DNA of 64,000 bases from Thermodesulfovibrionales bacterium (GCA_963727725.1 CAVSHJ010000027.1:10755-74754); one strand, 5' to 3'; numbered from the stretch's first letter, positions 14,176-33,025 are shown. Made by a program: numbers and translations. The notes: a model not told the origin generated them from the letters alone.

Positions 14176-14205
14176 TTGACTTAACCCCGCCGGTATTGAT
14201 AAATT
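14176..14205 (+). promoter_or_regulatory. Candidate sigma-70 promoter upstream of the first OmcS-like gene
   Basis: TTGACT (14176-14181), then TG-n-TAAATT (14197-14205, extended -10), followed immediately by the perfect palindrome AAGCTATAGCTT (14206-14217). Confidence 0.35.
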
Positions 14206-14372
14206 AAGCTATAGCTTCAATAAGGAAAGAAGAAATGCGCAGCAAAATCGCCGGATACAAGAAAAGAGCTATATATTAAATAGTTTGCGACTGTGCATCT
14301 CCTCTGAGGAATAAAATGTATTTTTCTCCGAATATTAAAATCTGGCGTAATTTATGCTTTTGCTATCAGAAT

Positions 14373-15371
14373 ATGCGGAAAAGTACGATCTGTCTTGCAG
14401 CGGTTCTTTCTATCGCAGTTCTATTTACTTTCGAAATGACAGAAGACGGCCTGGCAGTTGTCGCCGGAGACTGTAATGCCTGTCACACGGTTTATCCGGG
14501 GATGACAGAGAAGACTTTTCGTGCGAAGCCGTTCGAATATGTCTCCAGAGAGGTATTCTGTGTGAAATGCCACTCGAGCAATACGAGCGACACAATTATG
14601 ACGCTCGGCGGGAACCGGGTCCCTGTTGTTTTCAATAACTCAAAGCCTGTCAAACCCTTGGGGGGTGGAAATTTTTACTATGTGGCCTTCAGTGGAGACA
14701 GGAAAGGACACAATGTTAACGGGGTCTCATCCCGGGACACGGAATTCTCCGGTTTGCCCCCGGCCTACAGAAGGTCATCTGATCCTTCGTCCATAGGATA
14801 CAACCCTCAGAAGCCTCTGACGTGTGCCGGTTCAAACGGCTGTCACGGAAACAGGAATATTGAAGACCCGTTTGAGGCCGTCTTGGGCTCTCATCATGCG
14901 ATCAACATACCTGCTGACGGCAGCACAACGGCCAGGAGTTACAGGTTCTTGAGGAATTCCGACGCGCTGAAGGGCGTTATCGGCCTTGAGGACGACGAAT
15001 GGAATCAGAACGCCACTCCGAGAAAACATAACGAATATACTTCTTCTATAGACGTACTCTGCAGAAGCTGCCATGGCGGCCTTCAGAGCGGACATGCGGG
15101 CAGGCAGTTTAATCATCTTGCCGGAGTTCCCCTGCCGGCGAACGGGGAGTATATGAAATACGAGATTTACGATCTCGACGCGCCGGTTGCCAGAGAAACG
15201 GTTCCCCTGGTCTCAAGCGATGTTGTCACACCGGGTAAAGACCTGGTAACATGCCTCTCCTGCCACGTTGCCCACGCAAGTCCCTACGACTCTGAGTTAA
15301 GATGGGACTATGACAGCATCTTTACGGAAGGAGAGAGAAGCGGTTGTCTGATATGTCATACAGGCAAATGA
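14373..15371 (+). CDS. OmcS-like six-haem c-type cytochrome, paralog 1
   Basis: Signal peptide MRKSTICLAAVLSIAVLF. Haem motifs CNACH, CVKCH, CAGSNGCH, CRSCH, CLSCH, CLICH. Family blocks GGGNFYYVA, GHNV, SYRFL, HNEY, CLSCHVAHASPY, LRWDY. Confidence 0.75.
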   Translation: MRKSTICLAAVLSIAVLFTFEMTEDGLAVVAGDCNACHTVYPGMTEKTFRAKPFEYVSREVFCVKCHSSNTSDTIMTLGGNRVPVVFNNSKPVKPLGGGNFYYVAFSGDRKGHNVNGVSSRDTEFSGLPPAYRRSSDPSSIGYNPQKPLTCAGSNGCHGNRNIEDPFEAVLGSHHAINIPADGSTTARSYRFLRNSDALKGVIGLEDDEWNQNATPRKHNEYTSSIDVLCRSCHGGLQSGHAGRQFNHLAGVPLPANGEYMKYEIYDLDAPVARETVPLVSSDVVTPGKDLVTCLSCHVAHASPYDSELRWDYDSIFTEGERSGCLICHTGK

Positions 15372-16445
15372 CTACGCAGCTTCTTTTTTCTCTTTGCGCA
15401 CTGCTCTGCGCTCTCTGCTTGTTTTTTGCCCGAGCCTGACGCCAGGGTCAGGGGCAGATGCAAGGACTGCCACTACGTGCGCGGCGGTCAGGGTGTAGCG
15501 GAAACCATCTGTTTTATCGACTCGAAAATAAGTGCCTGGCATGTCACGGCCGGGATCCGGGCAGGGAGTGAGAATATCACCACCATAGGGAAAACGAGAT
15601 TCCCCCAGGTGCTTCACCATATGCAAAACAACGACCTGGCGGGCGGAAACTTCTATTACGTCGCGGACACTTTTAATCCCGATTATTCCCGGGGACATAA
15701 CATAGCGGGAATTTCACGTCCAGCAAAATCCTCCGATGAACGTGCCGCCCGGCTTCATGAAAAACGTTTTGATTCCCGGAAGCACAGGTCCCGCCTATTG
15801 GCCCGAATCAGACGTCAGCTGAATTGTTCGGGGACATGGGGCTGCCATGGAAACAGGACCATAGAAGACCCTTATAAGGCAATCGCGGGGGCTCATCATG
15901 AGGAAGACAGCACAATTGATGGATCAACAGTCGGCAAGAGTTATCGCTTCCTTTACGGAATAAAAGGTAAAGAACACCCTGAGTGGGAGTACCTGGCTAC
16001 CCCTGTTAACCATAACGGCTATGAAGGCGCAATTGACGCCAACAGCATGGACACTATCAGCTATCTCTGTGGTGAATGCCATGCAAAATTTCATCCCAAT
16101 CCGAATCTCGGCGGAAGGGAGGAGGTCGGTCAGGCGTATGACACCGCTGTCTGGCGAAGGCATCCGGTTGATATTGCATTCAATTCCGTGCGGGGAGGTT
16201 TCGCGAATTCCGAGTACGAAGGTTACGTGCAATACAGCCTTGAAGCTCCCGTAGCCTATGACAAACCTACCGGAAGAGAGGATGCCGTTAATTCCGGCAG
16301 CGTGATCATGTGTTTGTCATGTCACAGGGCACACGCGAGTCCATACCCCAGTATATTGAGATGGGATTATTCCAAGATGACCGCAGGCACAGGTAAATCA
16401 GGCACAGGATGTTTTGCATGTCACACAAAGAAAGGGCATGAATAA
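15368..16445 (+). pseudogene. OmcS-like six-haem cytochrome, paralog 2, with multiple frame disruptions in the 5' half
   Basis: ATG at 15368 overlaps the paralog 1 stop (ATGA) and encodes the signal peptide MTTQLLFSLCALLCALCLFFARA. CKDCH, CLACH and AGGNFYYVAD..GHNIAGIS then lie in alternating frames. From CSGTWGCHGNRT onward the ORF is intact to CFACHTKK. Confidence 0.7.
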
Positions 16446-16670: not shown

Positions 16671-16698
16671 TTGACATATTTTGCACGCAGCATTTAAT
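16671..16698 (+). promoter_or_regulatory. Strong sigma-70-type promoter candidate for OmcS-like paralog 3
   Basis: TTGACA (16671-16676), 16-nt spacer, TTTAAT (16693-16698). It sits in a 489-bp AT-rich intergenic region and would give a leader of about 230 nt. Confidence 0.5.
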
Positions 16699-16934
16699 TT
16701 AGAAGCATATGATAAACTTGAACAGTGTAATGTTTAACTCTTTAATATTATATTGTGGCATCAAACTTGCTACTATAATTAAATAATTAAACACTAAATT
16801 CGATAAATCGACCCAAACGATCTTTTTCGATTATTCAGGATGGGTACTTATAATTAGCAATAAATAATTAGCAGATAATATAATCGATACTTGCAGTTGT
16901 CAATCAAAACTAGAAGGAAAGGAGGTGAGAGGAG

Positions 16935-18044
16935 ATGAGAAAGTTATCGAATGTCATGTTTTTGACTCTGATCGGTCTGGCGCTGATTGCCGGAAGAGCT
17001 TATGCGATTACGGGCGTATGTTCAAATTGCCATACCATGCACAACAGTCAGAACGGGCAACCGATGGCAGACCGGGCGGACCCGTACGCATATCTGCTGA
17101 GGGCAAGCTGTGTGGGCTGCCATACAGGCACTACGGGTGAGACGAACAGTTTTGGCGCTCCCATTGTCTACCATACGACCAACCCTATCGATCAGGGAGG
17201 AGGCAAGACCCTTGCGGGCGGCGATTTCTATTGGGTTGCTACGGGTGGAGGCCATACAGACAGCATGGGTCACAATGTCAGCGGAATTGCAGCGGAGGAC
17301 CAACTGATCGGTGGAAGTGCGGCTGGTTTTACGCCACCTGGCTGGGATCCTGCTGCTACCCCCGGAGCCAATAGCGATGGTCAGGTTAACGATGGAGGGG
17401 CAACGTGGACGACGCAGCTGACTTGTGCCGGAACGAACGGTTGTCACGGGACTCACAGTGCTGCCGCTGACGCCGGCATCACGGGCGCCCATCACGGCAA
17501 CGTGAATGGGACATCCAATCAGGCAAATAGTTCAACTACGGTAGACAGTAGTTACAGGTTCCTGAGCGGTATCTATGGATTGGAGAATGTCGACTGGAAC
17601 TATAATGAGGATAGCTCAACCCACAATGAATACTCTGGTGTGGATTCCCCGGGCGGCAGAGACGCGGGAACGGCTTATGCGAATAAACATACCATAAGCT
17701 ATTCATGTGCCGAATGTCACGGTTTCTTCCACAGCAAGATAGCCAGCACTTCAGGCGGAGGCACTCCCTGGCTGAGGCATCCGACGGACATCGCTCTTCC
17801 GAATAAGACCGAGTATGCGGCTTACACTACCTACAGTGTTGAGGCTCCTGTCGGAAGGTCTACGGTTCCTGCAACCAGCGGCAGTACGGTAACTCCCGGA
17901 ACGGATACCGTCACCTGCATTTCATGCCACAGGGCTCACGGCTCGCCACAGGCTGACCTGTTGAGATGGGACTATTCACAAATGGTAGCGGGCGACAGTT
18001 CTAAAACAGGAGGCTGTTTCGTCTGCCACACAACTAAAAACTGA
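16935..18044 (+). CDS. OmcS-like six-haem c-type cytochrome, paralog 3 (intact)
   Basis: AGGAGGTG ribosome-binding site and signal peptide ending AYA|ITG. Haem motifs CSNCHTMHNS, CVGCH, CAGTNGCH, CAECHGFFH, CISCHRAHGSP, CFVCHTTKN. Also AGGDFYWVA, GHNV, SYRFL, WLRHPTDIALP, LRWDY. Confidence 0.8.
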   Translation: MRKLSNVMFLTLIGLALIAGRAYAITGVCSNCHTMHNSQNGQPMADRADPYAYLLRASCVGCHTGTTGETNSFGAPIVYHTTNPIDQGGGKTLAGGDFYWVATGGGHTDSMGHNVSGIAAEDQLIGGSAAGFTPPGWDPAATPGANSDGQVNDGGATWTTQLTCAGTNGCHGTHSAAADAGITGAHHGNVNGTSNQANSSTTVDSSYRFLSGIYGLENVDWNYNEDSSTHNEYSGVDSPGGRDAGTAYANKHTISYSCAECHGFFHSKIASTSGGGTPWLRHPTDIALPNKTEYAAYTTYSVEAPVGRSTVPATSGSTVTPGTDTVTCISCHRAHGSPQADLLRWDYSQMVAGDSSKTGGCFVCHTTKN

Positions 18045-18161: not shown

Positions 18162-19103
18162 ATGAAATCGCTGAGAGTAATTATTCTTTATATAATCGTC
18201 GGTCTGTTTCTTGCGGGACCCGGGAAAGCAAGTCCCCAGACCCGGGATCTTTCGGTAGCCTATATTGACAGCATTACTCAGGACGAGGAAGAAGGAAAGA
18301 TATATTTCCCTTCCGAAGTCTTCGCAGAAGCGGTCAGAAAAGAAATCTACATTATAGACAGCAGGTCCAGAATTATCATATACACATCCGACTTCTTCCC
18401 GGTTTTTACCCTGGATAAAGGTTATGGCGTTGAAAACCCTCAGGGGCTGACCGTGGATACGGAAGGCAACCTTTATGTGGCCCAGAGCGCAACAAAGGAT
18501 AACCCGAGACACAGGATATCTGTGTTCAACGCATGCCTTAAGTGGCTGCGTGACATCTACCTGGAAGGATTTGAAGGGGCTGAAACTTTTGTCCCTTATC
18601 GTATGGCCCTCGACAAGAAAGGGAATCTCTATGTAGCTTCTTCGTATTTCCCGGGCATCCTCGTGCTTAACAGCCAGGGCCGGCTTTTAGAGGTCTTTTC
18701 TGTTGAAGACGAAGGGAAGAAGGTGAAAGTCAATAATGTGACAGTGGACGAAGCCGGCAGGATTTTCATCGTAAGCGAAGAAGAAGGTCATATCTATGTA
18801 TACGATGAAAACAGGAGATTTCTTTTCAGATTCGGCGAGAAGGGAGGCAGCTCCGGCAAATTGAGTCGTCCAATGGCGGTGGCAACCGACAATCGCAGTG
18901 GCAGGATTTTTGCAGTGGATTATATGCGTCATACGGTTTCGATTTATGATCAGGACGGCAAATACCTTTCTGAGTTCGGTGGGCTCGGCTGGGGTGAGGG
19001 CTGGTTCCAGCACCCAAAGGACATAGCAGTTGATTCGTCCGGCAGGATACTCGTCGCAGATACATTTAATGACAGGATAGAGGTGTTTAAAGTAGATGAA
19101 TAA
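18162..19103 (+). CDS. Secreted NHL-repeat beta-propeller protein
   Basis: Signal peptide plus repeated NHL-like blades (GLTVDTEGNLYVA, MALDKKGNLYVAS, VTVDEAGRIFIVS, MAVATDNRSGRIFAVD, PKDIAVDSSGRILVADTFNDRIEVF). Confidence 0.8.
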   Translation: MKSLRVIILYIIVGLFLAGPGKASPQTRDLSVAYIDSITQDEEEGKIYFPSEVFAEAVRKEIYIIDSRSRIIIYTSDFFPVFTLDKGYGVENPQGLTVDTEGNLYVAQSATKDNPRHRISVFNACLKWLRDIYLEGFEGAETFVPYRMALDKKGNLYVASSYFPGILVLNSQGRLLEVFSVEDEGKKVKVNNVTVDEAGRIFIVSEEEGHIYVYDENRRFLFRFGEKGGSSGKLSRPMAVATDNRSGRIFAVDYMRHTVSIYDQDGKYLSEFGGLGWGEGWFQHPKDIAVDSSGRILVADTFNDRIEVFKVDE

Positions 19104-20670
19104 GGATTACAGCAGAGTAATTATTTCACTTTCAGCTCTATGCTCTTTGCTTATATTCGTAGCCGGTTGTGCTTCTGTGGAGGAGAATATAGCCCCGCAG
19201 GGGCCGTCCGACGGACAGATCACAGTATTTCTGAAAGGGCCTGACAAGACGGCAACGGATATTACATTCGACCTCACTGCTGTCAATATTTTGGCGGAAG
19301 ACGGGACACCCGGGGAGACTTCGAGAACTCCCATAGCTATAAACTCCCTTGCACTCACAGGCCACCAGGTCTGTCTGGGCGAGAGATACATCCCCGAAGG
19401 CAGATATAAAAAGCTTCAACTAATAGTAAAACAGGCCCTGATCAACAAGAAAGGCAAAACGGCTAACCTGGCACTGCCGCCCCAGGGAATCGAAATTGAT
19501 ATAGACGTAACAGTAAAGAGGAATGAGAACACATCTCTTTTTTTAAGCTGGGACCCGGATGCTTCTGTTAAAGAGGGATACCTGTTCAGCCCGGTGTTCA
19601 CAGTTAGAGGCCAGGTACCTGAATTAAGTAACTTGCTGGTCTATGTGACGAATGAAGCCTCAAATAACGTCTCGGTCATCAACAGGCAATCAGAGGAAAT
19701 AGTAGCAACGGTACTGGTGGGGAAAGGGCCGAGAGGTGTCACATCGAGTCAGGGGAAGGAACATCCAAGGGTCTTCGTGGCGAATTCGGGCTCCAACAGT
19801 CTATCGGTGATAGACCCTACTATTAATAAGGTCGAGGTCGAAATACCCCTGAGGTTCGGCAGGCAACCGGAAGGCATAGCGGCATTCGATGTGGCACCGG
19901 GGAAAGAACTTATCTTCGTGGCAAACTACGGTTCTAACAACGTGTCCGTTATCGACAGGGCCACCCATCAGGAGGTGGACAAGATAAGTGTGGGAGAGGG
20001 CCCGATAGCGGTCGCAGTTGACCCGCCTGCAGAAAGTCTTTCACCGACAAGGTTTCTGAGTTTCGAAGATCTGAACACTCTGAAGGCTTACCGCGCAAAA
20101 TTCTTCAATGTATATGTTGCAAACAAGAATTCAAAGGATGTCTCTATCATCAGAATGGATGCAATGAACGGCACGCCCGATGCGGTTGTCCGCGTCAATG
20201 CCGAATGGGGTCCCATCTCGCTCACGGTGGACCCTCAGAGAGCCAGGGTATATGTGGCGAACTACTATTACGACAACCTTTCAGTCATAGACATCCTGCA
20301 GGTTATCAGGGGGAACATCCCCGGATCTGTCAGTGAGATCATGGGTGCCGGTACATCTTTAGTGGGCATTATTCCGGAACCGGAACTTGACAGGATGTAT
20401 CTTCTAAAGGAGTCTACAGATGAGATATTGATCATCAGACCTTTTTCAGAGGCGTTCAGTTCGCAGAGGACCACTACGTCACCGGTGGTCGGTACGATAC
20501 CCGTGGGCAATTCTCCGAGGTCTTTTATCATGGACCCCGAAGGCAGAAAATTGTATGTAGTCAACAGGGGTTCGGACAATGTCTCGGTAGTGGATAAGAC
20601 CACCCGGGCAGAGGTACAGGTGATACCGGTGGGTAAGAAACCTTATGGCGTAGCGATGTTCCCTTTTTAG
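19096..20670 (+). CDS. Lipoprotein with a DUF4382-like N-terminal domain and a YVTN-type beta-propeller
   Basis: Lipobox LIFVAGC. At least six repeats of the form xVYVxNxxSNxVSVID…VGxxPxGxA. Confidence 0.75.
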   Translation: MNKDYSRVIISLSALCSLLIFVAGCASVEENIAPQGPSDGQITVFLKGPDKTATDITFDLTAVNILAEDGTPGETSRTPIAINSLALTGHQVCLGERYIPEGRYKKLQLIVKQALINKKGKTANLALPPQGIEIDIDVTVKRNENTSLFLSWDPDASVKEGYLFSPVFTVRGQVPELSNLLVYVTNEASNNVSVINRQSEEIVATVLVGKGPRGVTSSQGKEHPRVFVANSGSNSLSVIDPTINKVEVEIPLRFGRQPEGIAAFDVAPGKELIFVANYGSNNVSVIDRATHQEVDKISVGEGPIAVAVDPPAESLSPTRFLSFEDLNTLKAYRAKFFNVYVANKNSKDVSIIRMDAMNGTPDAVVRVNAEWGPISLTVDPQRARVYVANYYYDNLSVIDILQVIRGNIPGSVSEIMGAGTSLVGIIPEPELDRMYLLKESTDEILIIRPFSEAFSSQRTTTSPVVGTIPVGNSPRSFIMDPEGRKLYVVNRGSDNVSVVDKTTRAEVQVIPVGKKPYGVAMFPF

Positions 20671-20759: not shown

Positions 20760-23058
20760 GTGAAAATCCATACTCTCTGCCCTCTGCTCTGTGCTCTCTG
20801 CGCTACGCTTTTTTATTTTTCTCTGGCATACGCCGAAGGACCGAGTGGCTTGCTTAATTTAAATTATACAGATACAAAGCAATTCGAAGACGGGAAGAAA
20901 ACCGGGTCATCTGACAACTTTTTCCAGAATTATTACTTCCGTCTGGACAAATCAATTACCCCGATAATTTCTTATCAACTGAATATCCGTTCAACATTCT
21001 TGAACTCCAGTATGACGGATGCTCAGGGTGACACTACGAAGAGTTACCAGAGAGCGATAGAGCCTGATCTCGAAATCTTCTTAAGGAATCCCGTATACAC
21101 ACTGGATGCAGGGTATCGCCGCCTTGAGCAGTGGTCAACCGCGAACCTGTCTGATGAGGGCAGAAGAACAACCGACTACTACTATTCCCGTTTCACTGTA
21201 ACCCCGGGTGCGTTGCCGTCCGTATCACTGCAATTTGACAGGCAGAAGGACTACGACCATCTGTCAGTGAGCAAACTCGACACAACAGACACAAAATATT
21301 CTGTAAACAGCTGGTATGACCTGCTGTATAGGGATGTGAAGTTCTCATATAATGCCACTTACACAAGGGATGAGACAGAGACGCCGTTAGCTGTCGTATC
21401 TAAAACTACGAGTGACAACTTTAACGGCTCGTATAACTTCAATTACAACAAGTCCCTCATGGGCGGAATGATTAATATGCTGGCCGGCTACCAGGGAAAT
21501 TACTTCCGAAACAAGACTGTTGAATTTGCTGCCCAGTCAGGCAGTGTGTCATTAGAACGCACACCGTCACTGGGCATGTACGGTCCGGGTACGCAACTTC
21601 AGCCGGACGTCGATACGCTTACTTCAACGGCTACCCTGAGCGATAACATCTATAATGTGCCGGCCACTACCGCTGCGGGAACCATCAATATCGGCCAGAA
21701 CGGAAAGAAATTCAATAATATAGGAATCCAGTTATTTTCATCTGCCAGGCCTGTCGACACGATATTCATCTATGTGAATAAGGATGCCACATCGGATACA
21801 AATCTCACAAGCGTAGGCAACTGGAAGGCTTTTCGGAGCGATTTCAATCTCCCTTCCACATGGACGGAGATAACTATACAGAGCGTAACACTCTCGGTAT
21901 ATGATCCCCTGAATAACGTATTTCGCTACGAGATAAAGTTGTCCGCTCCCCTGAACAATCTTTATTTTAAGGTGGTGAATATGGAGATTGCATCAGTCAG
22001 CGATGTCTTTGTCACGGAAATAGAGGCATTTGGCACAGATGTCGTGCCGGGTTCAGGGAAGACTACCGATATATCAACCTTCTTTGCCCAGGGCATTAAC
22101 CTCACCGCGAGCATAAGACCTATGCCAAGGCTGACTTTTGCACTGAACTACTTTCTGAACAGATCCGATCAGGATCCGGCGTCGATCTTCCGTTCCATCG
22201 CAGGGGCTTTTTCGAATATATTCACTAAATCCATAAAGGGGAACGGTGACATATTGAGCAGCAATGTAACAAGGACTTTCGGATTGAGTTCAACATGGCT
22301 CACTCACCGGTTGCTCACGACAACGGTGCGGTTTGACAGGAACCAGGCCTTCGACAATAAGAATGAGACTGACATCAGGTCGGACACCTATCAGTTAGCC
22401 TTCCATTCATCACCGCTGCCGACTCTCGATACGAACCTGTCATTCATCAGGACTTATACATATAACTTTGACAGAAAAAATTCCCTCAACAGTCTGTACC
22501 TGTTGACCGTGGGGTCGAGACTTTACCGTGGTGTGAACATGATTACCGATATCGGATATACGGCAATAAAACAATACGCGGATCAATCCTCGCAGCAGCC
22601 GACCACCGGTAAGCACCGAATCTTCAACCCGTTACATCAGGGGGACTCTCGATGCACAGCTTACCGCGAAAGTGTCCGCAAACCTCACCTACGGCTTGAG
22701 CAGAACGTCAGGAGATACGTCTTCGAGTTCGGACGACGCTTCTTTGATAATAACTTACCGTCCGGGTAAATTTTTCAGTGTATCGGGCAATTTCGGCGTC
22801 TCCGGTACCGACAGTGAAACGACCAGCCTGGAAGGGGTGCTTATTGACTGGCTTTTCCTGCCTGCTGTAAGAATGAATATGAATTACCAGCATACAAACA
22901 AGGAACAGGAGAGAATGGATTCATTCAGCGGCTATGTTATCTGGTACATAACGAAGTTTTTGGATTTGCAGTTCACGTACGGATATTTGCGGGATGTGAA
23001 AGAGACGAAGAACGAAATATATTCCATTGGTGGAAATGTCATATGCAGACTCTGGTAA
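20760..23058 (+). CDS. Large outer-membrane beta-barrel protein (about 765 aa), one frame disruption near 22590-22620
   Basis: GTG start and signal peptide ending AYA|EG. The sequence has alternating-polarity, Y/N/T/S-rich strand patterns and ends in …VICRLW (aromatic terminus). ORFs 20760-22769 and 22672-23058 join through the frame reading …TRYIRGTLDAQLTAKVSANLTYGLS. Confidence 0.65.
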
Positions 23059-23710: not shown

Positions 23711-24292
23711 ATGAGACTATTAATGAGATTTTTGGCGATCTGCTTTTCTTGCCCATTATTCCTTCCTGCCTGCGGCGGGAAAAGCACACCTTCTTACTAT
23801 ATCAACCAGGACATAGACTTCAGTTTCATCAAGACGGTGGCGGTACTGCCCCTGGACAATCTCACAAACGACAGGTTTGCCGGTGAATCCGTGAGACAGG
23901 TTGTAATCAGCGAGCTTTTGGCTTCGGGACTCGTTGACGTTGTCTGTCCCGGCGATGTGGCCGGTGCCTGCGAGACTGCCAAAATGAAAACGGGCCAGTC
24001 TCCGAACGCTGAACAAATCAAGGCCATAGGAAAGACACTCAAGGTTCAGGCTGTTATTTTCGGCACGGTAAACAAGTATGGAGAGATCAGGGAAGGAAAT
24101 GTTTCCGCCCCTGAGATTGCGATCACCCTGATGATGGCAGATACAAACTCCGGCAGCATCATATGGTCTGTTACAAAGACACACGGGGGCGCCGATTTCT
24201 GGGCAAAACATTTCGGTGCGAAGGCAGACACAATGAGTGAGGCTGTTTTAAGAGTTGTCAGAGCTTCCATCCGGACGCTCTATAAACGTTAG
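23711..24292 (+). CDS. LpoB/PelC/DUF799-like lipoprotein 2
   Basis: Probable lipobox FLPAC and VAVLPLDNLT motif. The C-terminal GGADFWxxHxG…SIRTL block is shared with lipoprotein 1. Confidence 0.65.
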   Translation: MRLLMRFLAICFSCPLFLPACGGKSTPSYYINQDIDFSFIKTVAVLPLDNLTNDRFAGESVRQVVISELLASGLVDVVCPGDVAGACETAKMKTGQSPNAEQIKAIGKTLKVQAVIFGTVNKYGEIREGNVSAPEIAITLMMADTNSGSIIWSVTKTHGGADFWAKHFGAKADTMSEAVLRVVRASIRTLYKR

Positions 24293-25463
24293 GAAAAGAG
24301 ACAAAGTGCAAAAAGCTGTATACAACGACATTAATTTTATTTCATTCCCGCAATCCCGAATGCTTTCGGGAGCGTCGGGAATCCTTCTTCGAAAGAAAGA
24401 AAGATTCCGGACATCCGCCGGAGGCGGACGGAATGACAGAATACGGCTGACTTATGTCGCCATTCTGTTGACGCTGTGTTCTCTGCTATCCGTGGTCTGC
24501 ACGGTTCATGCTGCGCAGACAGACGTGAAAGAGATAATCGCGTTGTTCCCTTTTGAAAACCTCAGCGAGGATAAAAATGCTCTTGCAGCCGTTATGCCGG
24601 CAGTGAAACTCAGACTGGAGGCGAAGGGATTTGAAGTGCTGGATGAAGAGAAACTGAATAATTTTTTACTCAGGGAAAGGATCAGGAGCACCGGTTATGT
24701 TTCAAGGGATGTTGCCAGGAGACTTGGGGAACAACTGAATGTGAAGGCAGTTCTGGTGGGGTCTGTTAATTCATTCTTTACCGGAGATGATCCGAGAATC
24801 GGCCTTTCGGCGCGTCTTATCAATTCTTCGGATGGCGGTATTTTGTGGGCGAACCATTCTTCTGCTTCCGGAGATGATTTTACGACTATCCTGGGGTTAG
24901 GCAGAGTAACTGCAATCGACAAATTGTCTTCCAGGGTGGCAGATAAGTTGCTCGATTCCTTTCGAACCGCTCCTGCGGATAAGGAGATGGAGTCGACGTA
25001 CAGGATAGCGGTAATGCCTTTTCAGAACAGCAGCAAGGTGAAGGACGCGGGGTCGATAGCTACCTATATATTTATCGTAGAACTCTTTAAGGATAAGAAA
25101 TTCATACCCGTAGAATACGGCGAGGTGAGACGGTTAGTGGTTGATCTGCGGGTAAGGGAAAGAGGGGAACTGGACTTTAAGAAAACAGAAAGGATATCTG
25201 AATCTTCCGGGGTGGACGGAATCCTTGTGGGCACAGTTGATATTTACAGGGAAAAGGATGGTACCGCTCCTCCCGAGGCCGAGATAAGCGCGAGATTAAT
25301 AGATGCGAGGAGAGATAAGATTCTGTGGTGTGACAGCTTCAGGTTAAAAGGTGACGACGATATAATCGTACTCGACTGGGGAAGGATAAATACCGCAGAA
25401 AATGTGGTCTATAAAGCGGCATCAAAACTGCTAAAGGGAATGGGTAAAGCAAAATGGAATTAG
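24255..25463 (+). CDS. Secreted protein with two LpoB/DUF799-like domains (true start uncertain, probably after about 24440)
   Basis: Two ALFPFENLS / IAVMPFQNSS modules. The first 60 codons or so of the ORF translate the intergenic repeat. The signal-like segment LTYVAILLTLCSLLSVVCTVHA follows the repeat, and I found no in-frame ATG there. Confidence 0.6.
   Translation: MSELPSGRSINVRKRDKVQKAVYNDINFISFPQSRMLSGASGILLRKKERFRTSAGGGRNDRIRLTYVAILLTLCSLLSVVCTVHAAQTDVKEIIALFPFENLSEDKNALAAVMPAVKLRLEAKGFEVLDEEKLNNFLLRERIRSTGYVSRDVARRLGEQLNVKAVLVGSVNSFFTGDDPRIGLSARLINSSDGGILWANHSSASGDDFTTILGLGRVTAIDKLSSRVADKLLDSFRTAPADKEMESTYRIAVMPFQNSSKVKDAGSIATYIFIVELFKDKKFIPVEYGEVRRLVVDLRVRERGELDFKKTERISESSGVDGILVGTVDIYREKDGTAPPEAEISARLIDARRDKILWCDSFRLKGDDDIIVLDWGRINTAENVVYKAASKLLKGMGKAKWN
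24342..24460. repeat. Composite palindromic repeat lying inside the annotated 5' end of ORF 24255-25463
   Basis: tcattcccg…cgggaatcc…tccgccggaggcggacggaatgacag plus the tail aatacggctgacttatgtcgcc. The tail is also found at 42640-42668. Confidence 0.8.
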
Positions 25464-27109
25464 AGTCGCTAATAGTAAGGATCGGACGAGGAACAGGTAA
25501 GAGGATCTTACTGCTTACGATTTACTGTTTACTGTTTACGGTCTTTAATGGTTGTGCTTCGGTGTCGCAAAAGGAGGCGGTCCTCGCAGTTGTAGACAAT
25601 GAACCTGTAACAGAGGGAGACCTCAGGTATTCTCTTAGTATAGCTCACCGCAGAGAGGACCTGTCTTCAGCAGGTACCCTGAATCTGTCGGAGTATGTCC
25701 GGAAGCTTGTCGATGACAGATTAATTATCAACGAAGCCCGCAGTGCGGGCATGGATAAATATCCCGAGGTGCAGCAGGCGGTGGAGGCATACGTCCTGAG
25801 AGAATCCGTTGTCCGCCTCCATGACGAGGAGGTCGTGCGGAAGGTATCTGTGACCGAAGAGGAAATAAGAAATTATTACAAGAAGAATTATGAGAAGTTC
25901 AGACTTGGTTTAATAGAACTGAAATCGCAGGAAGAAGCGGAGGAAGTCTCCCGCCTGCTTCATGAGGGCGGGAATTTTAAAGAGCTTGCACGGAAATACA
26001 GTTTGCAATCTTCGCAAAAAGATAACGGGGAGATTGTTCTCACAAGAAGAGCGGTGCTGCCTGAATTCGAAAAGGTCATTTCAGCCCTGCGTCCTGAGGA
26101 AGTGAGCGACGTTGTAAAAGTGGGGGACAGGTGGTACATCGTGAAACTGATGGGAAGGGAGGAGGCGCCTGAAAAGGAATTCCAACATGCAAAAGGTAAC
26201 ATGGAGAGAGCTGTCAGGAAGCAGAAGGAACAGGAGAGAGGCGATGAGTATCTGAAATACCTCAGGGGAAAAGCCGCCATAAAGACAGACAGAGAGCTTC
26301 TCTCACAGATCAAACTTGACGGTGAAACCAAAGAATTAGAAAAATGGAAAAGAAATGCAACGACATTGGCGGCTGTAGACGGGTCGGTCCTTGCCGTCGG
26401 AGATCTTGTTGAAATAGCCGGGTCTTCTTTCAGTAAATCACCGGAAAACATTGTAAATAACTGGATTGATTGTAAGGTGATAGACCATGAGGCCCTCAGA
26501 AGGCATTATGAAACAGGAGCCGACCTGAAGGAAATGGTCCGCCGGTATGAAGACCAGCTTCTGAAGAGTACTTTTATCAAAAGGATTATCATGCCCCGGA
26601 TTGTTGTCACCGACGAAAAGCTCAAAGAATACTATTCGAAAAATCAGAGTAGTTTTCTCAAACCGGTGCGGTACAAAATCCGGCAGATAATCGTCAAGTC
26701 CATGGATGAGGCCCAGGAAATACTGGTTAACCTTCAGAGTGGCGCGGATTTTGCGTGGGTGGCAGGAAAGAAATCGACCGATGCCGCAGCTTCAAAAGGC
26801 GGAGAAGCCGTATGGGTCAGAAAGGAAGAATTGCCAAAATCTTTCAGCGAGATTGTAGATACCATGAATACAGGGAATCTGAGTCCGATAGTGAAGCTTG
26901 ATTCTTCTTATGGCATATTCAGAATAGAGGAGAAAACGGCGAAAGAACCTGAAGCAGTTGATAAAGTAAAAGAGGCTGTCTTCAGAGCGTGTGTGGGCGA
27001 GCAGGTGGACAACCTGCTGGGCAGGTATGTAAATCAACTGAGGGCAGGCGCGAATATAAGAGTATATAATGACGAAATACGGAAGATGGAGGAGAAATTT
27101 AAGCGCTAA
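25454..27109 (+). CDS. SurA/PrsA-like peptidyl-prolyl isomerase lipoprotein with two parvulin (PpiC) domains
   Basis: Probable lipobox VFNGC and two parvulin-like segments (…GNFKELARKYS…VVKVGDRWYIVKL; …GADFAWVAGKKS…SSYGIFRIEE). Confidence 0.7.
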   Translation: MELESLIVRIGRGTGKRILLLTIYCLLFTVFNGCASVSQKEAVLAVVDNEPVTEGDLRYSLSIAHRREDLSSAGTLNLSEYVRKLVDDRLIINEARSAGMDKYPEVQQAVEAYVLRESVVRLHDEEVVRKVSVTEEEIRNYYKKNYEKFRLGLIELKSQEEAEEVSRLLHEGGNFKELARKYSLQSSQKDNGEIVLTRRAVLPEFEKVISALRPEEVSDVVKVGDRWYIVKLMGREEAPEKEFQHAKGNMERAVRKQKEQERGDEYLKYLRGKAAIKTDRELLSQIKLDGETKELEKWKRNATTLAAVDGSVLAVGDLVEIAGSSFSKSPENIVNNWIDCKVIDHEALRRHYETGADLKEMVRRYEDQLLKSTFIKRIIMPRIVVTDEKLKEYYSKNQSSFLKPVRYKIRQIIVKSMDEAQEILVNLQSGADFAWVAGKKSTDAAASKGGEAVWVRKEELPKSFSEIVDTMNTGNLSPIVKLDSSYGIFRIEEKTAKEPEAVDKVKEAVFRACVGEQVDNLLGRYVNQLRAGANIRVYNDEIRKMEEKFKR

Positions 27110-27173: not shown

Positions 27174-29120
27174 ATGAAAAATGTATTAAAGATTCTTTCC
27201 GTGGTATTCATAACAGCTGTTTTTTCGACCTGCGCATCTGAGCCGTCGGTTAAGAGAGGGTTTGAGGCCAAACCTTGCCTTGACTGCCACAAAGCTACTT
27301 TGAGCGAGTTCCGGAAGAAATATGTCCATTCACCGATGGCCGAAAGGGACTGTGAAGCCTGCCATCTGCGTCATGGAAAGATTGCCGTGCTGACGCTCAG
27401 GGAAAAGGAAGAAAGAAAACTCTGTTATACCTGCCACAAGCAGATGTCTCTTAATATGGAAAAGACTGCCAACGTGCATAGCGCCTTGAAACAGGGGAAG
27501 TGTCTCCCCTGCCATAATCCCCATTCATCGGACAACAAAGCGCTTCAGAAAAAGACCGGAAGTGAGCAGTGCTTCACCTGTCACGCCCAGACCCAGTTCA
27601 CTCGCGCCAGGCGCCATAAGCCGCTGTCGGATGGCTGTCTAACCTGTCACAGTGCGCACGGGTCGCAATACAAGGACAACCTTATAGAGGATGAAACCGA
27701 ACTCTGTCAGTCATGCCACAGTTTCACATCCGACAAATTCAGAAAAGCGCATAAAGACTATCCTGTTCAGAAGGGGAAATGCACCGGATGTCACACGCCC
27801 CATAGTTCAACTAATGAGAGACTCCTCAGGGAGTCGGTGCACGCCCCTCTGAAACTCGGCCAATGCTCCGCGTGCCATAACGCATTGAGTGATCCGAATC
27901 CTCTCGGTGTTATTGCGCGCGACGGAAAGCTCTGCTTCACCTGCCACAAGAAAGAGGAAAAGGAATTTCAGGAAAAACACAGACATCGTCCCGCCGAAGA
28001 AGGGAAATGTCAGAGCTGTCATAATCCCCATGCAAGCGATTATCCGGGGGTAACGCTTATGGATAAGAATCAACTTTGCCTGAACTGCCACAAGAAAAAA
28101 GCGGATTTATTAAAGGTAAACGTCTTGCATGCGCCGATCAAGGATAAAGGCTGCGTTTCCTGCCACAATCCTCATGCATCTCAAAATCCCTTTTTCCTCA
28201 AGGCACCGGAGAAACAGCTATGTTTTACCTGCCACGCGAAGACGGAAAAGGAACTGAAGGAAACGTCTCTGCATATGCCTTTTTCAAAGATTGAATGCGA
28301 CAAATGTCACGATTCTCACGGCAGTAATAATCCGTTCATGATGAAGGTTTCCCTCTCTGATTTATGCTATTCATGCCACAAGAAGGAAGAAAAGGATTTC
28401 TTTAAGACCTACATTCATACTCCGGTGAATGAGAGAAAGTGCCTTTCCTGTCATAAAGCGCACTCCTCTTCGTACAAAAACCTGCTGAATAATCAGCCGG
28501 ATCAACTCTGTATGAGCTGCCACGGCAACATGGCGGCTGAAATGAAGGACGAGGCCCTCCATGGCCCTTTTAAAGACAAGAAATGCGGAAGCTGTCACAG
28601 CCCTCATGCGAGTGAATACGCCGGACATTCGCTTGCGCCGATGCCCGGACTGTGTTACCGGTGCCATAAGAAGATGGAGAGGGATATAAAAGAGAGCAAA
28701 AGGAGACATCTCCCCGTGGAAGAAGGCAAATGCACAGGCTGTCACAGCCCCCACGGAACAAAGATCGGCAAGCTGCTTTTGAACAGGCCTAAAGAACTCT
28801 GTCTGTCGTGTCATGAAAAAATAGTTACTACCACCGCGAGAAAAGGGCATGTCGATATGGAGAAAGGTGACTGCCTGAGTTGCCATTTCTCCCATTTCTC
28901 GCAATCTCAATATTTACTGAGAGCTTCAGACCCTGCAGTATGCGTGAAGTGTCATTCTGTTGACACCCGGGAACTGCTGAAGGCCCATATAATGCCGCTG
29001 GCCAGAATCAACCGCTGTCTCAGTTGTCACGAGCCGCATGTTACCGAAAAGCCCGGCCTGATAAAGAGAATAAAACATGCCCCGTTTTCGAGGGGAGACT
29101 GCAGGGCTTGCCATGAATAA
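27174..29120 (+). CDS. 26-haem c-type cytochrome, probable lipoprotein
   Basis: I count 26 CxxCH motifs in 648 aa, arranged as a dihaem unit of about 48 aa repeated about 13 times (KGKCxxCHNPHxS…LCxxCHKK). Signal peptide with Cys (VFSTC). Confidence 0.85.
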   Translation: MKNVLKILSVVFITAVFSTCASEPSVKRGFEAKPCLDCHKATLSEFRKKYVHSPMAERDCEACHLRHGKIAVLTLREKEERKLCYTCHKQMSLNMEKTANVHSALKQGKCLPCHNPHSSDNKALQKKTGSEQCFTCHAQTQFTRARRHKPLSDGCLTCHSAHGSQYKDNLIEDETELCQSCHSFTSDKFRKAHKDYPVQKGKCTGCHTPHSSTNERLLRESVHAPLKLGQCSACHNALSDPNPLGVIARDGKLCFTCHKKEEKEFQEKHRHRPAEEGKCQSCHNPHASDYPGVTLMDKNQLCLNCHKKKADLLKVNVLHAPIKDKGCVSCHNPHASQNPFFLKAPEKQLCFTCHAKTEKELKETSLHMPFSKIECDKCHDSHGSNNPFMMKVSLSDLCYSCHKKEEKDFFKTYIHTPVNERKCLSCHKAHSSSYKNLLNNQPDQLCMSCHGNMAAEMKDEALHGPFKDKKCGSCHSPHASEYAGHSLAPMPGLCYRCHKKMERDIKESKRRHLPVEEGKCTGCHSPHGTKIGKLLLNRPKELCLSCHEKIVTTTARKGHVDMEKGDCLSCHFSHFSQSQYLLRASDPAVCVKCHSVDTRELLKAHIMPLARINRCLSCHEPHVTEKPGLIKRIKHAPFSRGDCRACHE

Positions 29121-30477
29121 GCAAAGGGCAGAGCGTAATCCGCCTCAGGCGGAGCAATCCGCCTCAGGCGGAGCGAACAGCCAACAGCCACGGGCTAATC
29201 CCCCCAGCCCCCCTTTAATAAAAGGGGGCAGTAAGGGGGGATTATTGCTCTATACTCTCTGCGCCGTGCTTATTTTTATCTATTGTAGTTCTGCTCATGC
29301 GCAGGGAGAGCTCAGGGAAAAGATTCCCGACCTCTGTTATCGATGCCATGTCAAACTCAAAGAAAGCCTTAAACGAAGCCAGGTACATTTTCCTTTCAAG
29401 GAGGGCAAATGTCTCTCCTGCCATGATTCTCATGCGAGCAACATGAAGAAGATGATAAGAGAGGAGATTAACCCTTTATGTCTCGGCTGCCATGACGGGA
29501 TTAAGAGACTCCTCGCGAAGAACGTAGTTCATCCCGCACTGAAGAGAGGAGTTTGCACAGATTGTCACAATGCACACAGCGGAGAGAACAAGCATTTGCT
29601 GGTAAAGGCCGAGAAGGACCTCTGCTGGGATTGCCACGGTCCTTTGAAAGAGCAGTTAAAGAAAACTTATGTTCATACGCCTTTCAGAAACGGCGAATGC
29701 TCGTCCTGTCACGACCCTCATGCATCCCCGGAAGAATACCAGATACGTGCGGGCGCCAATAAATTGTGTAAGAACTGCCATGCGGCAAAGTGTAAAGTGG
29801 GCGGTGTTTCGATAAGCTCGACAACGGAAAAAATGGACTGCGACACATGCCATGGCGGACATGCTTCAGACAGCAAGGGTCTTCTGGGACCATACGGACA
29901 CTCCGCCTTTCTGGAGGAGAAGTGCGATCAATGTCATAATCCGATTGTGGCAGACAAGAAAATAACCACGCGGATATCCGGCAAGGATCTTTGTTTCAGC
30001 TGCCACAAGAAGGAGTCCGTGAAACTCAGGGAAAACGATGTTCATTTGAATGATTCAAAGGGCGCGTGCGGCATGTGCCACAGTTATCATGCATCAAAGA
30101 AAAAAAGTCTGACCGTGAAAGAATCGCAGGTCTGTTTTTCCTGTCACGAAAATACGGAGAAGAGGACAGCCTTGATGGAGAAGGCCTTGAAATCTATCCG
30201 GTGTGTGCCTGTGAAAGACAGGAAGTGTTTCGAATGCCATATACCGCCCCACTCAGACAAGCCGCTCTATTTCAAGGCTGACAGCATACAGACTTGTGCA
30301 AACTGCCATACGCAGCAGCATAAGGTCGCGCACCCGGTCGGACAGAATGTGAAAGATCCCCGCAATGGCCAGCCGCTCACCTGCATTACCTGCCACAGCA
30401 TGCATAATTCAAAGGACGAATTCATGCTCTATTTTGACAGAAAGAGGCAACTCTGTATCCAGTGTCATAAGAAGTGA
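29077..30477 (+). CDS. 16-haem c-type cytochrome (true start probably near 29240-29250)
   Basis: I count 16 CxxCH motifs. The N-terminal 55 codons or so translate repeats. The signal-like segment LLLYTLCAVLIFIYCSSAHA|QG follows, with a possible TTG start. Confidence 0.8.
   Translation: MPRFRGETAGLAMNKQRAERNPPQAEQSASGGANSQQPRANPPSPPLIKGGSKGGLLLYTLCAVLIFIYCSSAHAQGELREKIPDLCYRCHVKLKESLKRSQVHFPFKEGKCLSCHDSHASNMKKMIREEINPLCLGCHDGIKRLLAKNVVHPALKRGVCTDCHNAHSGENKHLLVKAEKDLCWDCHGPLKEQLKKTYVHTPFRNGECSSCHDPHASPEEYQIRAGANKLCKNCHAAKCKVGGVSISSTTEKMDCDTCHGGHASDSKGLLGPYGHSAFLEEKCDQCHNPIVADKKITTRISGKDLCFSCHKKESVKLRENDVHLNDSKGACGMCHSYHASKKKSLTVKESQVCFSCHENTEKRTALMEKALKSIRCVPVKDRKCFECHIPPHSDKPLYFKADSIQTCANCHTQQHKVAHPVGQNVKDPRNGQPLTCITCHSMHNSKDEFMLYFDRKRQLCIQCHKK
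29137..29244. repeat. Tandem 19-nt AATCCGCCTCAGGCGGAGC x2 plus G/C-run palindrome (TAATCCCCCC…GGGGGGATTA)
   Basis: Direct duplication at 29137-29155 and 29156-29174, and a nested palindrome at 29196-29244. It lies inside the annotated N-terminus of ORF 29077-30477. Confidence 0.8.
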
Positions 30478-30517: not shown

Positions 30518-31675
30518 ATGTATGGCTCTTGCTCTAGGACAGGGAGGGATATTCTGACATTACGCGGGCAGAAAAGGTCGAAATGGATAACCGTAAAATC
30601 TGTTACCGGGGGGGGCCTTTTACCCTTCTTTCTTTTCACAATAGGAATGGTTTTATACACTACAATTTTACCGTCAGAAGCAAATGTCACAGGCAATTGC
30701 AGCGACTGTCACACTATGCATAACAGCCAGAACGCTGTGAATATGCAAATTTTGGCCCCGGGAGAAACTGATACCGGACCAAAGGGGTTTCTCTTGCGTT
30801 CTACTTGCCTGGGATGCCACGGGCAGGGCACCGGCAATAATCTTGGCGCTCGCAACATACCTCAGGTACTGCATAGCAACGCTACCGATCTCGCCGGCGG
30901 AAATTTCGCTTATATTACGGGAATGAAGACACGGACGAGCGGAGATTCCAATACCGCCGGGCATAATGTTGTTGATCTTGGTTTTAATGAGACTGTATTG
31001 ACTTCTCCCCCGGGAGATGAACATTCAACAAATATCACCAGTTCGAATTTTACCTGTGCCGGGGCTAAGGGTTGTCACGGAGACCGCAGCATCGAGGATA
31101 AATTGATTGCGATGAAAGGAGCGCATCATACAGATGATCATATCCTCAAGTTCGGGACCATAAACGAAAACGATCAGGGCGGCAGCGCAGGCTTGAGCTA
31201 CAGGTTCCTGAGAGGAGTTAAGGGCGGAGAGGACTCACTCTGGGAGGCGGCTCCAGGGCCAGCCGCTCATAACGAATACAAAGGTTCAACATCAATGGGA
31301 ACAAGTTCTGCCACTTCGCCGGCCAATAATACTATCAGCGGGTTATGTGCCGAATGCCACGGATATTTTCATGGGACTTCATCAAACGAGGTTGGAAGTC
31401 AGGACCCATGGCTGAGACATCCGACTGACATTGCTTTGCCTTCGAGCGGTGAATATATGCCCTATACGACATATAACCTCACGGCTCCCGTTGCGAGGAC
31501 ATCTATACCTGACAGCCCGGGTAATACAGTCTCATCATCTGACGTTGTGATGTGTCTCTCATGCCACAGGGCGCATGCTTCGCCGTATTACAAGTCAATG
31601 CGATGGGATTATAAGAATTGGCCCGGAAACGGTCAGATAAATGGATGCAATGTATGCCATACCGGTAAGAATTAA
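30518..31675 (+). CDS. OmcS-like six-haem c-type cytochrome, paralog 4
   Basis: Haem motifs CSDCHTMHNS, CLGCH, CAGAKGCH, CAECHGYFH, CLSCHRAHASPY, CNVCHTGKN, plus AGGNFAYI, GHNV, SYRFL, HNEY, WLRHPTDIALP, MRWDY. The 5' end contains a G8 tract (30608-30615), so the start is ambiguous. Confidence 0.8.
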   Translation: MYGSCSRTGRDILTLRGQKRSKWITVKSVTGGGLLPFFLFTIGMVLYTTILPSEANVTGNCSDCHTMHNSQNAVNMQILAPGETDTGPKGFLLRSTCLGCHGQGTGNNLGARNIPQVLHSNATDLAGGNFAYITGMKTRTSGDSNTAGHNVVDLGFNETVLTSPPGDEHSTNITSSNFTCAGAKGCHGDRSIEDKLIAMKGAHHTDDHILKFGTINENDQGGSAGLSYRFLRGVKGGEDSLWEAAPGPAAHNEYKGSTSMGTSSATSPANNTISGLCAECHGYFHGTSSNEVGSQDPWLRHPTDIALPSSGEYMPYTTYNLTAPVARTSIPDSPGNTVSSSDVVMCLSCHRAHASPYYKSMRWDYKNWPGNGQINGCNVCHTGKN

Positions 31676-31720
31676 CAACAAGAAAAGAGCATGGGGCACA
31701 GAGTCTAACAGAGAATTACA

Positions 31721-33025
31721 ATGTTCAGATTTGAAATTTTGATAATTTTGGGAAAACAGCGATTAGTTTGTCGTCTGTTTTTCGTGCTTTGCACTTTGCT
31801 CTTTGCGCTTTGCTCTATATTCTATCCTGACGCCGTGAACTCCGGCCCGTATCTCGACTCTGCCCATGGAAACACGTCATACGGAGTCATGCGTAATGCC
31901 CTGGGGTTTCCTTCAGATTATTCAAAGGGCAATTGTGCCCATTGCCATGAGCAGCATGCGTCAGTTGGCGGCAACGAACCTTCTCCGCAAGGGGGCAGCG
32001 TATCCGGATATGCTCTTTTTGCGGATAATTTTACAAGTCAATCTGAAGATTTTTGCTACTATTGTCATAAGGGAACGGGTTCGTTGCAATTGTCTTTCAG
32101 TCACATAAATTATGATTACAGTTACTGGTTTGGCGGAGACACTTTCAATCATACCCAACCGAATAGCGTCTTCGATGCTTTTAATCCGACTTTCGGTGAA
32201 AATCCTTCTTACCACAACCTGCAGGACGTATTGGACTTCGTCAAAATGAAATGGCCCGAGACCTTCAGGAATGAATCAAACCCCTGCAGTGCCTGTCATA
32301 ATCCACACCTTTCCACGCGCAGTTATCCGATAGTGAAGCCGAGTGATCGCAACAATATCTGGGGAAATGAAGCGGGCGAAAGAATGAGTGATTTTGCAGC
32401 GGCTCATGGCGGCAAATACCATGCGCCGTACCGCTATAATTCGACTTCAGCATATGAACCTGACGGTTCGTTTGCCACGGACGGTTCCAATATGCCCGAT
32501 TATGTGACATTCTGTTCCGACTGTCATAATGATACGAACGTTATCTATAGTACGACGCTCGGCAGAAACCTCGAGAAGATAGGCTGGGCGCAAGAGTCGC
32601 GCACATATGGCGCAGTTGCCGATTATCACGGGTCAGTGGCACGCTGTTTCGGCGTAGACGGGAATGTTGATCAGGGTTGCGGATGCAGCGAAGCGAATTG
32701 CTCAAACTGGGGCAGTTTAAAAGAGCCTTACCATTCCGCAAATTATATGAATTATATTCTGTCCTGCACCGATTGCCATGAACCACACGGGAGCCGTCGT
32801 CAATATCTCTTGCGTACAACGGTCAATGGCAGCTGGAATAATCAGGTGCCGCCCGGACCACCCACACCTTCATGGGAGCGACAATTCTGTCTGAGCTGCC
32901 ATACTCACAACGCTCACTGCGGCAATCTGTGGAACTGTCTGAACTGCCACTATCACAATTCCTATGCCCGATGCTTTGCATGCACGTGGTGTGCATTCGG
33001 AGGTGTTCACGGACACGCTTTTTAG
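31721..33025 (+). CDS. Seven-CxxCH c-type cytochrome
   Basis: Motifs CAHCH, CYYCH, CSACH, CSDCH, CTDCH, CLSCH, CLNCH. Hydrophobic N-terminal signal or anchor. Confidence 0.75.
   Translation: MFRFEILIILGKQRLVCRLFFVLCTLLFALCSIFYPDAVNSGPYLDSAHGNTSYGVMRNALGFPSDYSKGNCAHCHEQHASVGGNEPSPQGGSVSGYALFADNFTSQSEDFCYYCHKGTGSLQLSFSHINYDYSYWFGGDTFNHTQPNSVFDAFNPTFGENPSYHNLQDVLDFVKMKWPETFRNESNPCSACHNPHLSTRSYPIVKPSDRNNIWGNEAGERMSDFAAAHGGKYHAPYRYNSTSAYEPDGSFATDGSNMPDYVTFCSDCHNDTNVIYSTTLGRNLEKIGWAQESRTYGAVADYHGSVARCFGVDGNVDQGCGCSEANCSNWGSLKEPYHSANYMNYILSCTDCHEPHGSRRQYLLRTTVNGSWNNQVPPGPPTPSWERQFCLSCHTHNAHCGNLWNCLNCHYHNSYARCFACTWCAFGGVHGHAF

Follow-up and report, generated by a model that had tools for sequence, protein, structure and literature searches.

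The osc cluster of Geobacter sulfurreducens (GSU2505-GSU2493) has been described and is reportedly widespread (Shen et al. 2025, Cell Chem Biol 32:239); it is the closest known counterpart of the locus considered here. PMC13194489 names the osc operon, with oscC as GSU2501, oscI as GSU2495 and oscJ as GSU2494, and, after Shen et al. 2025, gives OscH a role in folding, OscE, OscF and OscG a role in secretion and OscD a role in morphology. In bioRxiv 10.1101/2025.11.06.686851, GSU2501 is described together with an eight-gene block, GSU2500-2493, in which GSU2495 is a 26-haem protein, and the block is linked to OmcS maturation and secretion. Here we analyze a locus of this kind in a 64,000-nucleotide stretch of DNA from an uncultured anaerobe, a Thermodesulfovibrionales bacterium (GCA_963727725.1 CAVSHJ010000027.1:10755-74754), referred to as the window, with positions counted from its first letter. 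Fifteen open reading frames (ORFs), all co-directional on the + strand, span 14316-33025 (Table 1). Seven of them are c-type cytochromes, and 68 CxxCH motifs fall within the locus, whereas the window's remaining open frames, counted from 50 codons upward, contain 2.

Homology identifies the locus as another copy of the published osc cluster and not as a new kind of system. We assign a probability of about 0.7 to the reading that it is an osc-system member whose likely product is an extracellular haem-stacked polymer, in which the homologies come from sequence comparison and the roles and the filament would follow from them.

Hexahaem paralogues and their kinship to OmcS

Four of the cytochromes, P1 to P4, had been predicted from the sequence alone to resemble the filament cytochrome OmcS. 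BLASTP of these paralogues against OmcS, OmcT and OscC gave colinear alignments covering haems 1-5, with 22-28% identity and E values of 1e-15 to 1e-5. A profile built from 55 family members (A1) retrieved OmcS (6ef8) as the sole significant entry in the PDB (E 5.7e-18), and hhalign comparison of A1 with a profile of 30 OmcS-family sequences (A2) returned a probability of 99.8% (E 5e-29, 316 columns). In a multiple alignment, six of six haem sites in P1, P3 and P4 are colinear with those of OmcS, and the GGDF, GHN, RHP and SCHRAH blocks line up as well. Because the colinear BLASTP matches, the profile match in the PDB, the hhalign result and the aligned haem sites and blocks all point the same way, we regard the homology of the P1, P3 and P4 family to OmcS as established at the sequence level. 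In the PDB search this kinship is visible to profile methods and not to single-sequence phmmer, which did not recover OmcS from P3 even at E 10.

The blocks that the original prediction had named as OmcS landmarks are indeed present in the deposited 6EF8 sequence, as CHTMHNS, GGDFGWV, GHNI, CLSCHRAHAS and a C-terminal CNKCH, and its assignment of the paralogues to the OmcS family stands on the hhalign, PDB profile and BLASTP similarity. Its description of the four proteins was too uniform. The shared blocks occur in P3 and P4 and in P2 where it is intact, and P1 departs from several of them, with CHTVYPG for CHTMHNS, CRSCHGGLQ for CxECHGxFH and QFNHLAG for WLRHPTD. Likewise, six haem sites are found in P1, P3 and P4, but not in P2, where the frame is broken and haem 2 is lost. 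By position, P3 corresponds to oscC (GSU2501), directly upstream of oscD, and not to omcS.

His16 of mature OmcS, within the CHTMH motif, is reported to be the inter-subunit ligand donor, ligating haem 5 of the neighboring subunit (Wang et al. 2019, Cell 177:361). Ligation of the interfacial OmcS haem by histidines from two subunits is documented (PMC12954529). The CHTMH histidine is kept in P3, P4 and P2 orthologues. P1 and all of its orthologues are of the CHxxYPGM type (CxACHxxYPGM) and lack this histidine, as seen in the related loci (numbered with the prefix L) L004 121-1350, L005 7034-8113, L007 7332-8426 and L013 1947-3002, and also in L085. Since P1 is without the histidine that bridges subunits in OmcS, it is possibly a filament end subunit or a non-polymerizing form.

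The third haem site of P1, P3 and P4 has the spacing C-x5-CH (CX5CH) and is a predicted haem attachment site. The original prediction had listed this motif among the novel features of the locus; it is present in all three proteins and is shared by the whole sub-family. The pattern C.G..GCH with five CxxCH motifs was found in 120 of the 120 closest P3 homologues and in 0 of the 120 closest OmcS homologues. By this criterion of sequence, CX5CH at haem 3 is the hallmark of a sub-family, and the two branches are distinct, each tied to osc genes. A literature search for a CX5CH or CXXXXXCH haem motif returned nothing.

The sub-family is large. A metagenome protein collection contains at least 2996 significant homologues of P3, and at least 524 sub-family matches, spread over several phyla, occur in species genomes of GTDB, the best GTDB matches being Nitrospirota/Thermodesulfovibrionia metagenome-assembled genomes (MAGs) at 58-61% identity. 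The NHL-repeat protein of the locus reaches 72% identity to MAGs of the same group, and these best matches of the cluster itself loosely place the host near Nitrospirota/Thermodesulfovibrionia. Other hosts of P3 matches include Thermodesulfobacteriota, Deferribacteres, Aquificales and Thermosulfidibacter, and cultured carriers of the sub-family include Thermodesulfatator autotrophicus S606 (L056) and Thermodesulfobacterium hydrogeniphilum DSM 14290 (L063). The host context, which had been put forward as new, is not: OmcS-like genes have already been reported in Thermodesulfovibrionia MAGs (PMC8478452), in addition to the GTDB matches above.

The 7-haem protein at the 3' end of the locus has the haem 4-6 module in common with the OmcS-like family (hhalign probability 97.3%, E 2e-11). 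A family of such 7/8-haem proteins recurs beside P3-like genes in L042 (10947-12392) and 9 other loci, especially in Desulfuromonadales MAGs, so that this protein, also proposed as a novelty, is rather a recurrent partner of P3-like genes.

Companion genes and promoter motif compared with Geobacter

Every protein of the locus was compared with the Geobacter reference locus (L003). Nine companion genes match Geobacter osc proteins, with E values from 1e-18 to 1e-154, and, the NHL gene excepted, they stand in the same order. This one-by-one homology bears out the statement in the original prediction that the Geobacter omcS neighborhood includes an NHL protein, a PpiC prolyl isomerase and a 26-haem cytochrome. 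Moreover, the name it used, 'omcS companion', is a published term, osc (PMC13194489; bioRxiv 10.1101/2025.11.06.686851). Domain matches and haem counts confirm the predicted NHL protein, YVTN lipoprotein, LpoB-like lipoproteins, PpiC protein and 26-haem cytochrome, and the 'further multihaem cytochrome' is the protein with 16 CxxCH motifs encoded at 29077-30477. Domain matches of the three lipoproteins to Pfam-type families (CsgG, LpoB, GNA1162 and FlgO) are weak, and no Pfam family was found for the barrel protein of about 770 amino acids. As predicted, no cytochrome of PpcA size is encoded in the 64-kb window, an absence that is uninformative about the whole genome.

In both organisms the hexahaem genes, several paralogues in one cluster, are followed by the propeller lipoprotein, the barrel, the PelC-like lipoproteins, the prolyl isomerase and the 26-haem and 16-haem cytochromes, with an NHL gene in addition. 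At 22-28% identity, the subunits of the window are about 60 amino acids shorter because they lack a long insert between haems 5 and 6; the haem 3 motif reads CX5CH in the window and CxxCH in Geobacter; and the set of distal histidines is partly different, with AHH and HNEY in the window for DPH in Geobacter. Furthermore, the window has two copies of OscF where Geobacter has a single one, has one NHL gene, placed before OscD, lacks OscB and carries an extra pair, P4 and the 7-haem gene, at its 3' end. The OscD homologue of the window contains 0 CxxCH motifs, whereas Geobacter OscD (L003 8532-9980) contains one, CSGCH, overlapping the lipobox.

The clusters around OmcE in Geobacter and Desulfuromonas soudanensis are built alike, with a filament cytochrome, two multihaem cytochromes, propeller lipoproteins and a large barrel (bioRxiv 10.1101/2025.10.22.684050), but their subunit is an unrelated tetrahaem protein. 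Against OmcE (7tfs), the A1 profile gave E 0.038 over the first haem motif only.

We compared the locus with related loci L005-L082 and closer relatives, drawn from Nitrospirota, Thermodesulfobacteriota, Aquificales and Thermosulfidibacter. Most loci with enough flanking sequence keep the companions (NHL, YVTN, barrel, lipoprotein, prolyl isomerase, 26-haem and 16-haem) beside the cytochromes, so the co-conservation on which the original prediction depended is found in most of the longer loci, and the two very large multihaem cytochromes always accompany the barrel. The order P1-P2-P3 is retained in the Nitrospirota loci L005, L007 and L013. Four-fold paralogy, by comparison, is no novelty: relatives carry 2-4 hexahaem copies per locus, and in Geobacter OmcS, OmcT and OscC are encoded within the cluster and OmcJ elsewhere (bioRxiv 10.1101/2025.11.06.686851).

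The likeness to Geobacter extends to a promoter motif. The sigma-54-type motif TGGCAYN5TTGCW has one match in the window, TGGCATCAAACTTGCT at 16756-16771, ahead of the OscC-position gene P3, and a site of this type also lies upstream of Geobacter oscC (L003 6828-6843). Across 1.3 Mb, comprising the window and related loci, 27 sites were found against about 3 expected from scaling of the window's chance rate; 24 of the 27 lie on the gene strand, and 18 precede a hexahaem gene by no more than 400 nt. No gene for a sigma-54 activator was seen among the annotated genes of the window, and generic scans for sigma-70 promoters and terminators gave counts equal to those of shuffled sequence. Geobacter omcS has a cyclic GMP-AMP (cGAMP) riboswitch; upstream of P1 and P3, Rfam found no riboswitch, even at E 1.

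For this window, the gain is annotation. As an instance of the osc machinery from outside Desulfuromonadia, the locus is clean and nearly complete, and the remaining interest lies in the whole sub-family, with its conserved CX5CH site, histidine-less P1 type, putative sigma-54 control and 7-haem relative. The osc machinery travels with this second, very large and uncharacterized branch of the OmcS family, some of whose carriers are cultured thermophiles, and the branch offers testable handles on which paralogues polymerize, how filaments are initiated or capped (P1 type), whether haem binds at C-x5-CH and how expression is controlled, putatively through sigma-54.

A proposed filament and its alternatives

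In the mechanism that we favor, the OmcS-family hexahaem cytochromes P1-P4, three or four in number, would be exported by Sec and receive their haems in the periplasm, and the OscH-like lipoprotein with two PpiC domains would aid their folding. The OscE-like barrel of about 770 amino acids and the PelC-like lipoproteins (two OscF-like, one OscG-like) may move the subunits across the outer membrane or mount them on it. Two beta-propellers, the OscD-like YVTN and the GSU2505/OscK-like NHL protein, could act on assembly or shape, and the OscI/J-like 26-haem and 16-haem cytochromes would carry electrons through the periplasm to the filament base. The most likely product would be an extracellular haem-stacked polymer made mainly of P3, possibly with P4; P3 is favored because it has its own sigma-54-type promoter motif and the CHTMH histidine. 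At the level of structure, the scheme draws support from the large-barrel model of the OscE family and from the PelC matches of the OscF-like proteins. Whether electrons flow outward, to minerals or partner cells, or inward is not readable from sequence.

Several points weigh against a filament. In Geobacter, OmcS alone is known to polymerize, and not OmcT, OmcJ or OscC, and predictions of nanowire function from sequence are reported to be misleading (bioRxiv 10.1101/2025.11.06.686851). P1-P4 are about equidistant from OmcS, OmcT and OscC in pairwise BLASTP, and the CX5CH sub-family has no solved structure and no demonstrated filament. An AlphaFold2 model of P3 without haem had a mean predicted local distance difference test (pLDDT) score of 61 and zero Foldseek matches in the PDB; because the model is of low confidence, this comparison says nothing for or against an OmcS fold. 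The Osc roles are taken from papers that cite the primary study. Additionally, OscB (GSU2502, 1017 amino acids, spermine-synthase-like) has no tblastn match anywhere in the window; it is probably not cluster-defining, since it lies outside the conserved eight-gene block GSU2500-2493. Finally, P2 and the barrel gene are frame-shifted in the assembly, and if these shifts were real, export would be lost. The term 'nanowire' in the original prediction overstates what is an inference.

The barrel itself invites a different explanation, namely that the locus encodes a porin-cytochrome conduit and no filament, with one of the large cytochromes (16 or 26 haems) enclosed by the barrel in the way that MtrB encloses MtrA and with the hexahaem proteins acting as non-polymerizing carriers in the periplasm or at the surface. 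We consider this unlikely. For the OscE family, AlphaFold2 gives a high-confidence model (pLDDT 91.8), a barrel with roughly 28 strands and an inserted beta domain. Its Foldseek matches are only to large barrels in general, MtrB from the Mtr complex having the highest TM-score (6r2q_B, TMq 0.33, 8% identity). OscC, OscI and OscJ are listed as periplasmic in PMC13194489, and the constant company of barrel and two very large multihaem cytochromes would also suit a conduit. In Mtr/Pcc systems, too, a large barrel has multihaem cytochromes as partners, both periplasmic and outer. However, the TM-scores are low (0.2-0.35), and TonB-dependent receptors and chaperone-usher ushers score alike; no sequence relationship to Mtr is detectable, and the lipoprotein ring, prolyl isomerase and propellers are without an Mtr counterpart. 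PelC-like lipoproteins and a dedicated prolyl isomerase fit polymer export better than a static conduit, and P3 and P4 both retain the histidine that bridges OmcS subunits. Both models could hold at once, with a filament sitting on a conduit of this kind. A porin-like mounting model is presented in bioRxiv 10.1101/2025.10.22.684050.

The comparison with Pel polysaccharide export bears on the same question. The OscF-like lipoproteins match PelC chains 5t11, 5t10 and 9h80_C, which by analogy suggests a lipoprotein ring under the barrel. PelC entries in the PDB list 12 chains, and PelC reportedly forms a 12-mer ring beneath the PelB barrel (Marmont et al. 2017, PNAS). In the window, the cargo would be a haem protein instead of a polysaccharide, and the barrel is not PelB-like by sequence.

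A further proposal, which we find more doubtful than the conduit, is that the CX5CH sub-family forms a filament unlike that of OmcS in both structure and assembly, with a haem at an unprecedented C-x5-CH site, P1 as dedicated end subunit, the 7/8-haem protein (31721-33025) as adaptor and sigma-54 as the switch. Without the donor histidine, P1 could receive the inter-subunit ligand but would have none to offer in turn, and would thus form a cap or base. If true, a distinct CX5CH filament with a P1 end subunit would answer how cytochrome filaments start and stop.

The broken frames raise the question of whether the locus is decaying, with P2 and the barrel gene as true pseudogenes and a system that is non-functional in this genome. 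P2 is broken at haem sites 1-2: the frame from 15368 ends after 23 codons, the longest ORF (15426-16445) is without a signal peptide and haem 2, and comparison with the intact orthologues in L004 and L085 indicates about 7 frame-changing indels between 15426 and 15815. Intact P2 orthologues of 345-393 amino acids occur in L004, L005, L007 and L085. A 1-bp insertion at about 22610 splits the barrel gene, which is an intact 770-amino-acid gene in L083 and L085. That both genes are intact in the relatives L083 and L085 is in keeping with decay, and the heavily hit genes, P2 and a NuoF-like copy, belong to tandem paralogue sets in which redundancy could relax selection. But single-copy genes that are essential or needed are split as well, including valS (61868-62587 and 62717-64000) and ccsA (38316-38846 and 38815-39399; an intact 360 amino acids in L087). 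The NuoF-like gene lies in several pieces at 8285-10389 (region 8019-10400), and CooS is just 492 amino acids (region 5322-6800). Furthermore, the nucleotide identity of P2 to L085 (81.7%) equals that of its neighbors (79-85%), with no excess of substitutions. Because housekeeping genes are split too and P2 is no more diverged than its neighbors, indel errors in the assembly are the more likely cause of the split genes, and decay of the locus appears very unlikely to us.

Layout, flanks and neighboring genes

The features of the locus are collected in Table 1. The original prediction of co-directional genes with tight or overlapping spacing fits all intervals (-44 to +117 bp) save one, a 489-bp AT-rich gap between P2 and P3 (16446-16934). 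The P2 ORF contains 4 CxxCH motifs, and the true start of the OscG homologue is probably downstream of 24255. The G+C content is 47-50% both inside and outside the locus, and no compositional signal of recent transfer was found.

Table 1. Genes and promoter element of the osc-type locus, in window coordinates.
Feature	Position	Strand	Evidence and remarks
P1, OmcS-family hexahaem cytochrome	14316..15371, likely start 14373	+	5 CxxCH + CAGSNGCH; OscC E 2e-9
P2, OmcS-family paralogue, broken 5' third	15368..16445	+	intact from ~15820 onwards
Sigma-54-type -24/-12 element TGGCATCAAACTTGCT	16756..16771	+	164 nt upstream of P3 ATG
P3, OmcS-family hexahaem cytochrome	16935..18044	+	Sec signal peptide; CHTMHNS; 5 CxxCH + CAGTNGCH (haem 3)
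NHL-repeat beta-propeller, GSU2505 and OscK (GSU2493) homologue	18162..19103	+	E 3.5e-18 / 1.6e-12
DUF4382 + YVTN beta-propeller lipoprotein, OscD homologue	19096..20670	+	lipobox VAGC; E 1e-30 full length; 1L0Q E 5e-34
Large outer-membrane beta-barrel, OscE homologue	20760..23058	+	E 1e-21; ORFs 20760-22769 and 22672-23058
OscF-like lipoprotein 1, PelC-like	23043..23648	+	lipobox LDGC; OscF E 2e-25; PelC 9h80_C E 1e-4
OscF-like lipoprotein 2, PelC-like	23711..24292	+	lipobox LPAC; OscF E 4e-29; 5t11 E 2e-6; 9h80_C E 2e-3
OscG homologue, 402-aa lipoprotein	24255..25463	+	two tandem GNA1162/FlgO/CsgG-like domains; E 4e-36
Lipoprotein with two PpiC-type prolyl isomerase domains, OscH homologue	25454..27109	+	E 3.5e-30 full length
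26-haem cytochrome, OscI (GSU2495) homologue	27174..29120	+	26 CxxCH; 39% identity, E 5.5e-154
16-haem cytochrome, OscJ (GSU2494) homologue	29077..30477	+	16 CxxCH in both; 35% identity, E 3e-71
P4, OmcS-family hexahaem cytochrome	30518..31675	+	CHTMHNS; 5 CxxCH + CAGAKGCH (haem 3); OmcT E 1e-15
7-haem cytochrome, divergent OmcS-like relative	31721..33025	+	7 CxxCH; haem 4-6 module common to family

Upstream of the locus lie AcsD/AcsC/AcsB/CooS, NuoE/F-like and FdhA-like genes, as the original prediction had it in placing the locus next to a Wood-Ljungdahl/Nuo-like operon; a ScpA gene (13352-14110) stands between these genes and the locus, and the adjacency to Nuo/Fdh-like genes recurs only in the close relative L085. 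The left flank in common with L085 (about 83% nucleotide identity) comprises NuoF-like, FdhA-like and ScpA genes, followed by P1, and the Nitrospirota loci have neither flank of the window in common. Since the left flank is found in L085 but not in the Nitrospirota loci, the Wood-Ljungdahl neighborhood is lineage-specific and probably incidental.

The right flank is common to L087 and L088 (83-88% nucleotide identity) from 52862 down to a PilZ gene. Beyond PilZ, these two loci contain an outer-membrane protein, STAS proteins and a 1711-amino-acid kinase, with no osc genes for 8 kb (window 33025-33130 compared with L087 19308-21575 and L088 13180-21230). Because L087 and L088 diverge beyond PilZ, we consider the right edge of the locus a synteny breakpoint.

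Just downstream, on the - strand, are the two-domain PilZ protein (33129-33842), a ResB/CcsA pair of system II cytochrome c biogenesis (38316-40836) and a PilT-family ATPase with an MshE-type N-terminal domain that binds cyclic di-GMP (40915-42489). The ResB/CcsA pair was considered as a dedicated lyase for CX5CH and rejected, the pair not being found near the cluster in other loci. A BioF/Kbl-family enzyme is encoded at 35180-36409 (-); its highest-scoring models are those for serine palmitoyltransferase (E 2e-174, under the curated cut-off). Its neighbors are an SDR and a GNAT-like protein, and the three may form a sphingolipid synthesis module. The sole Rfam match in the window is a single tRNA gene at 56172-56245 (+).

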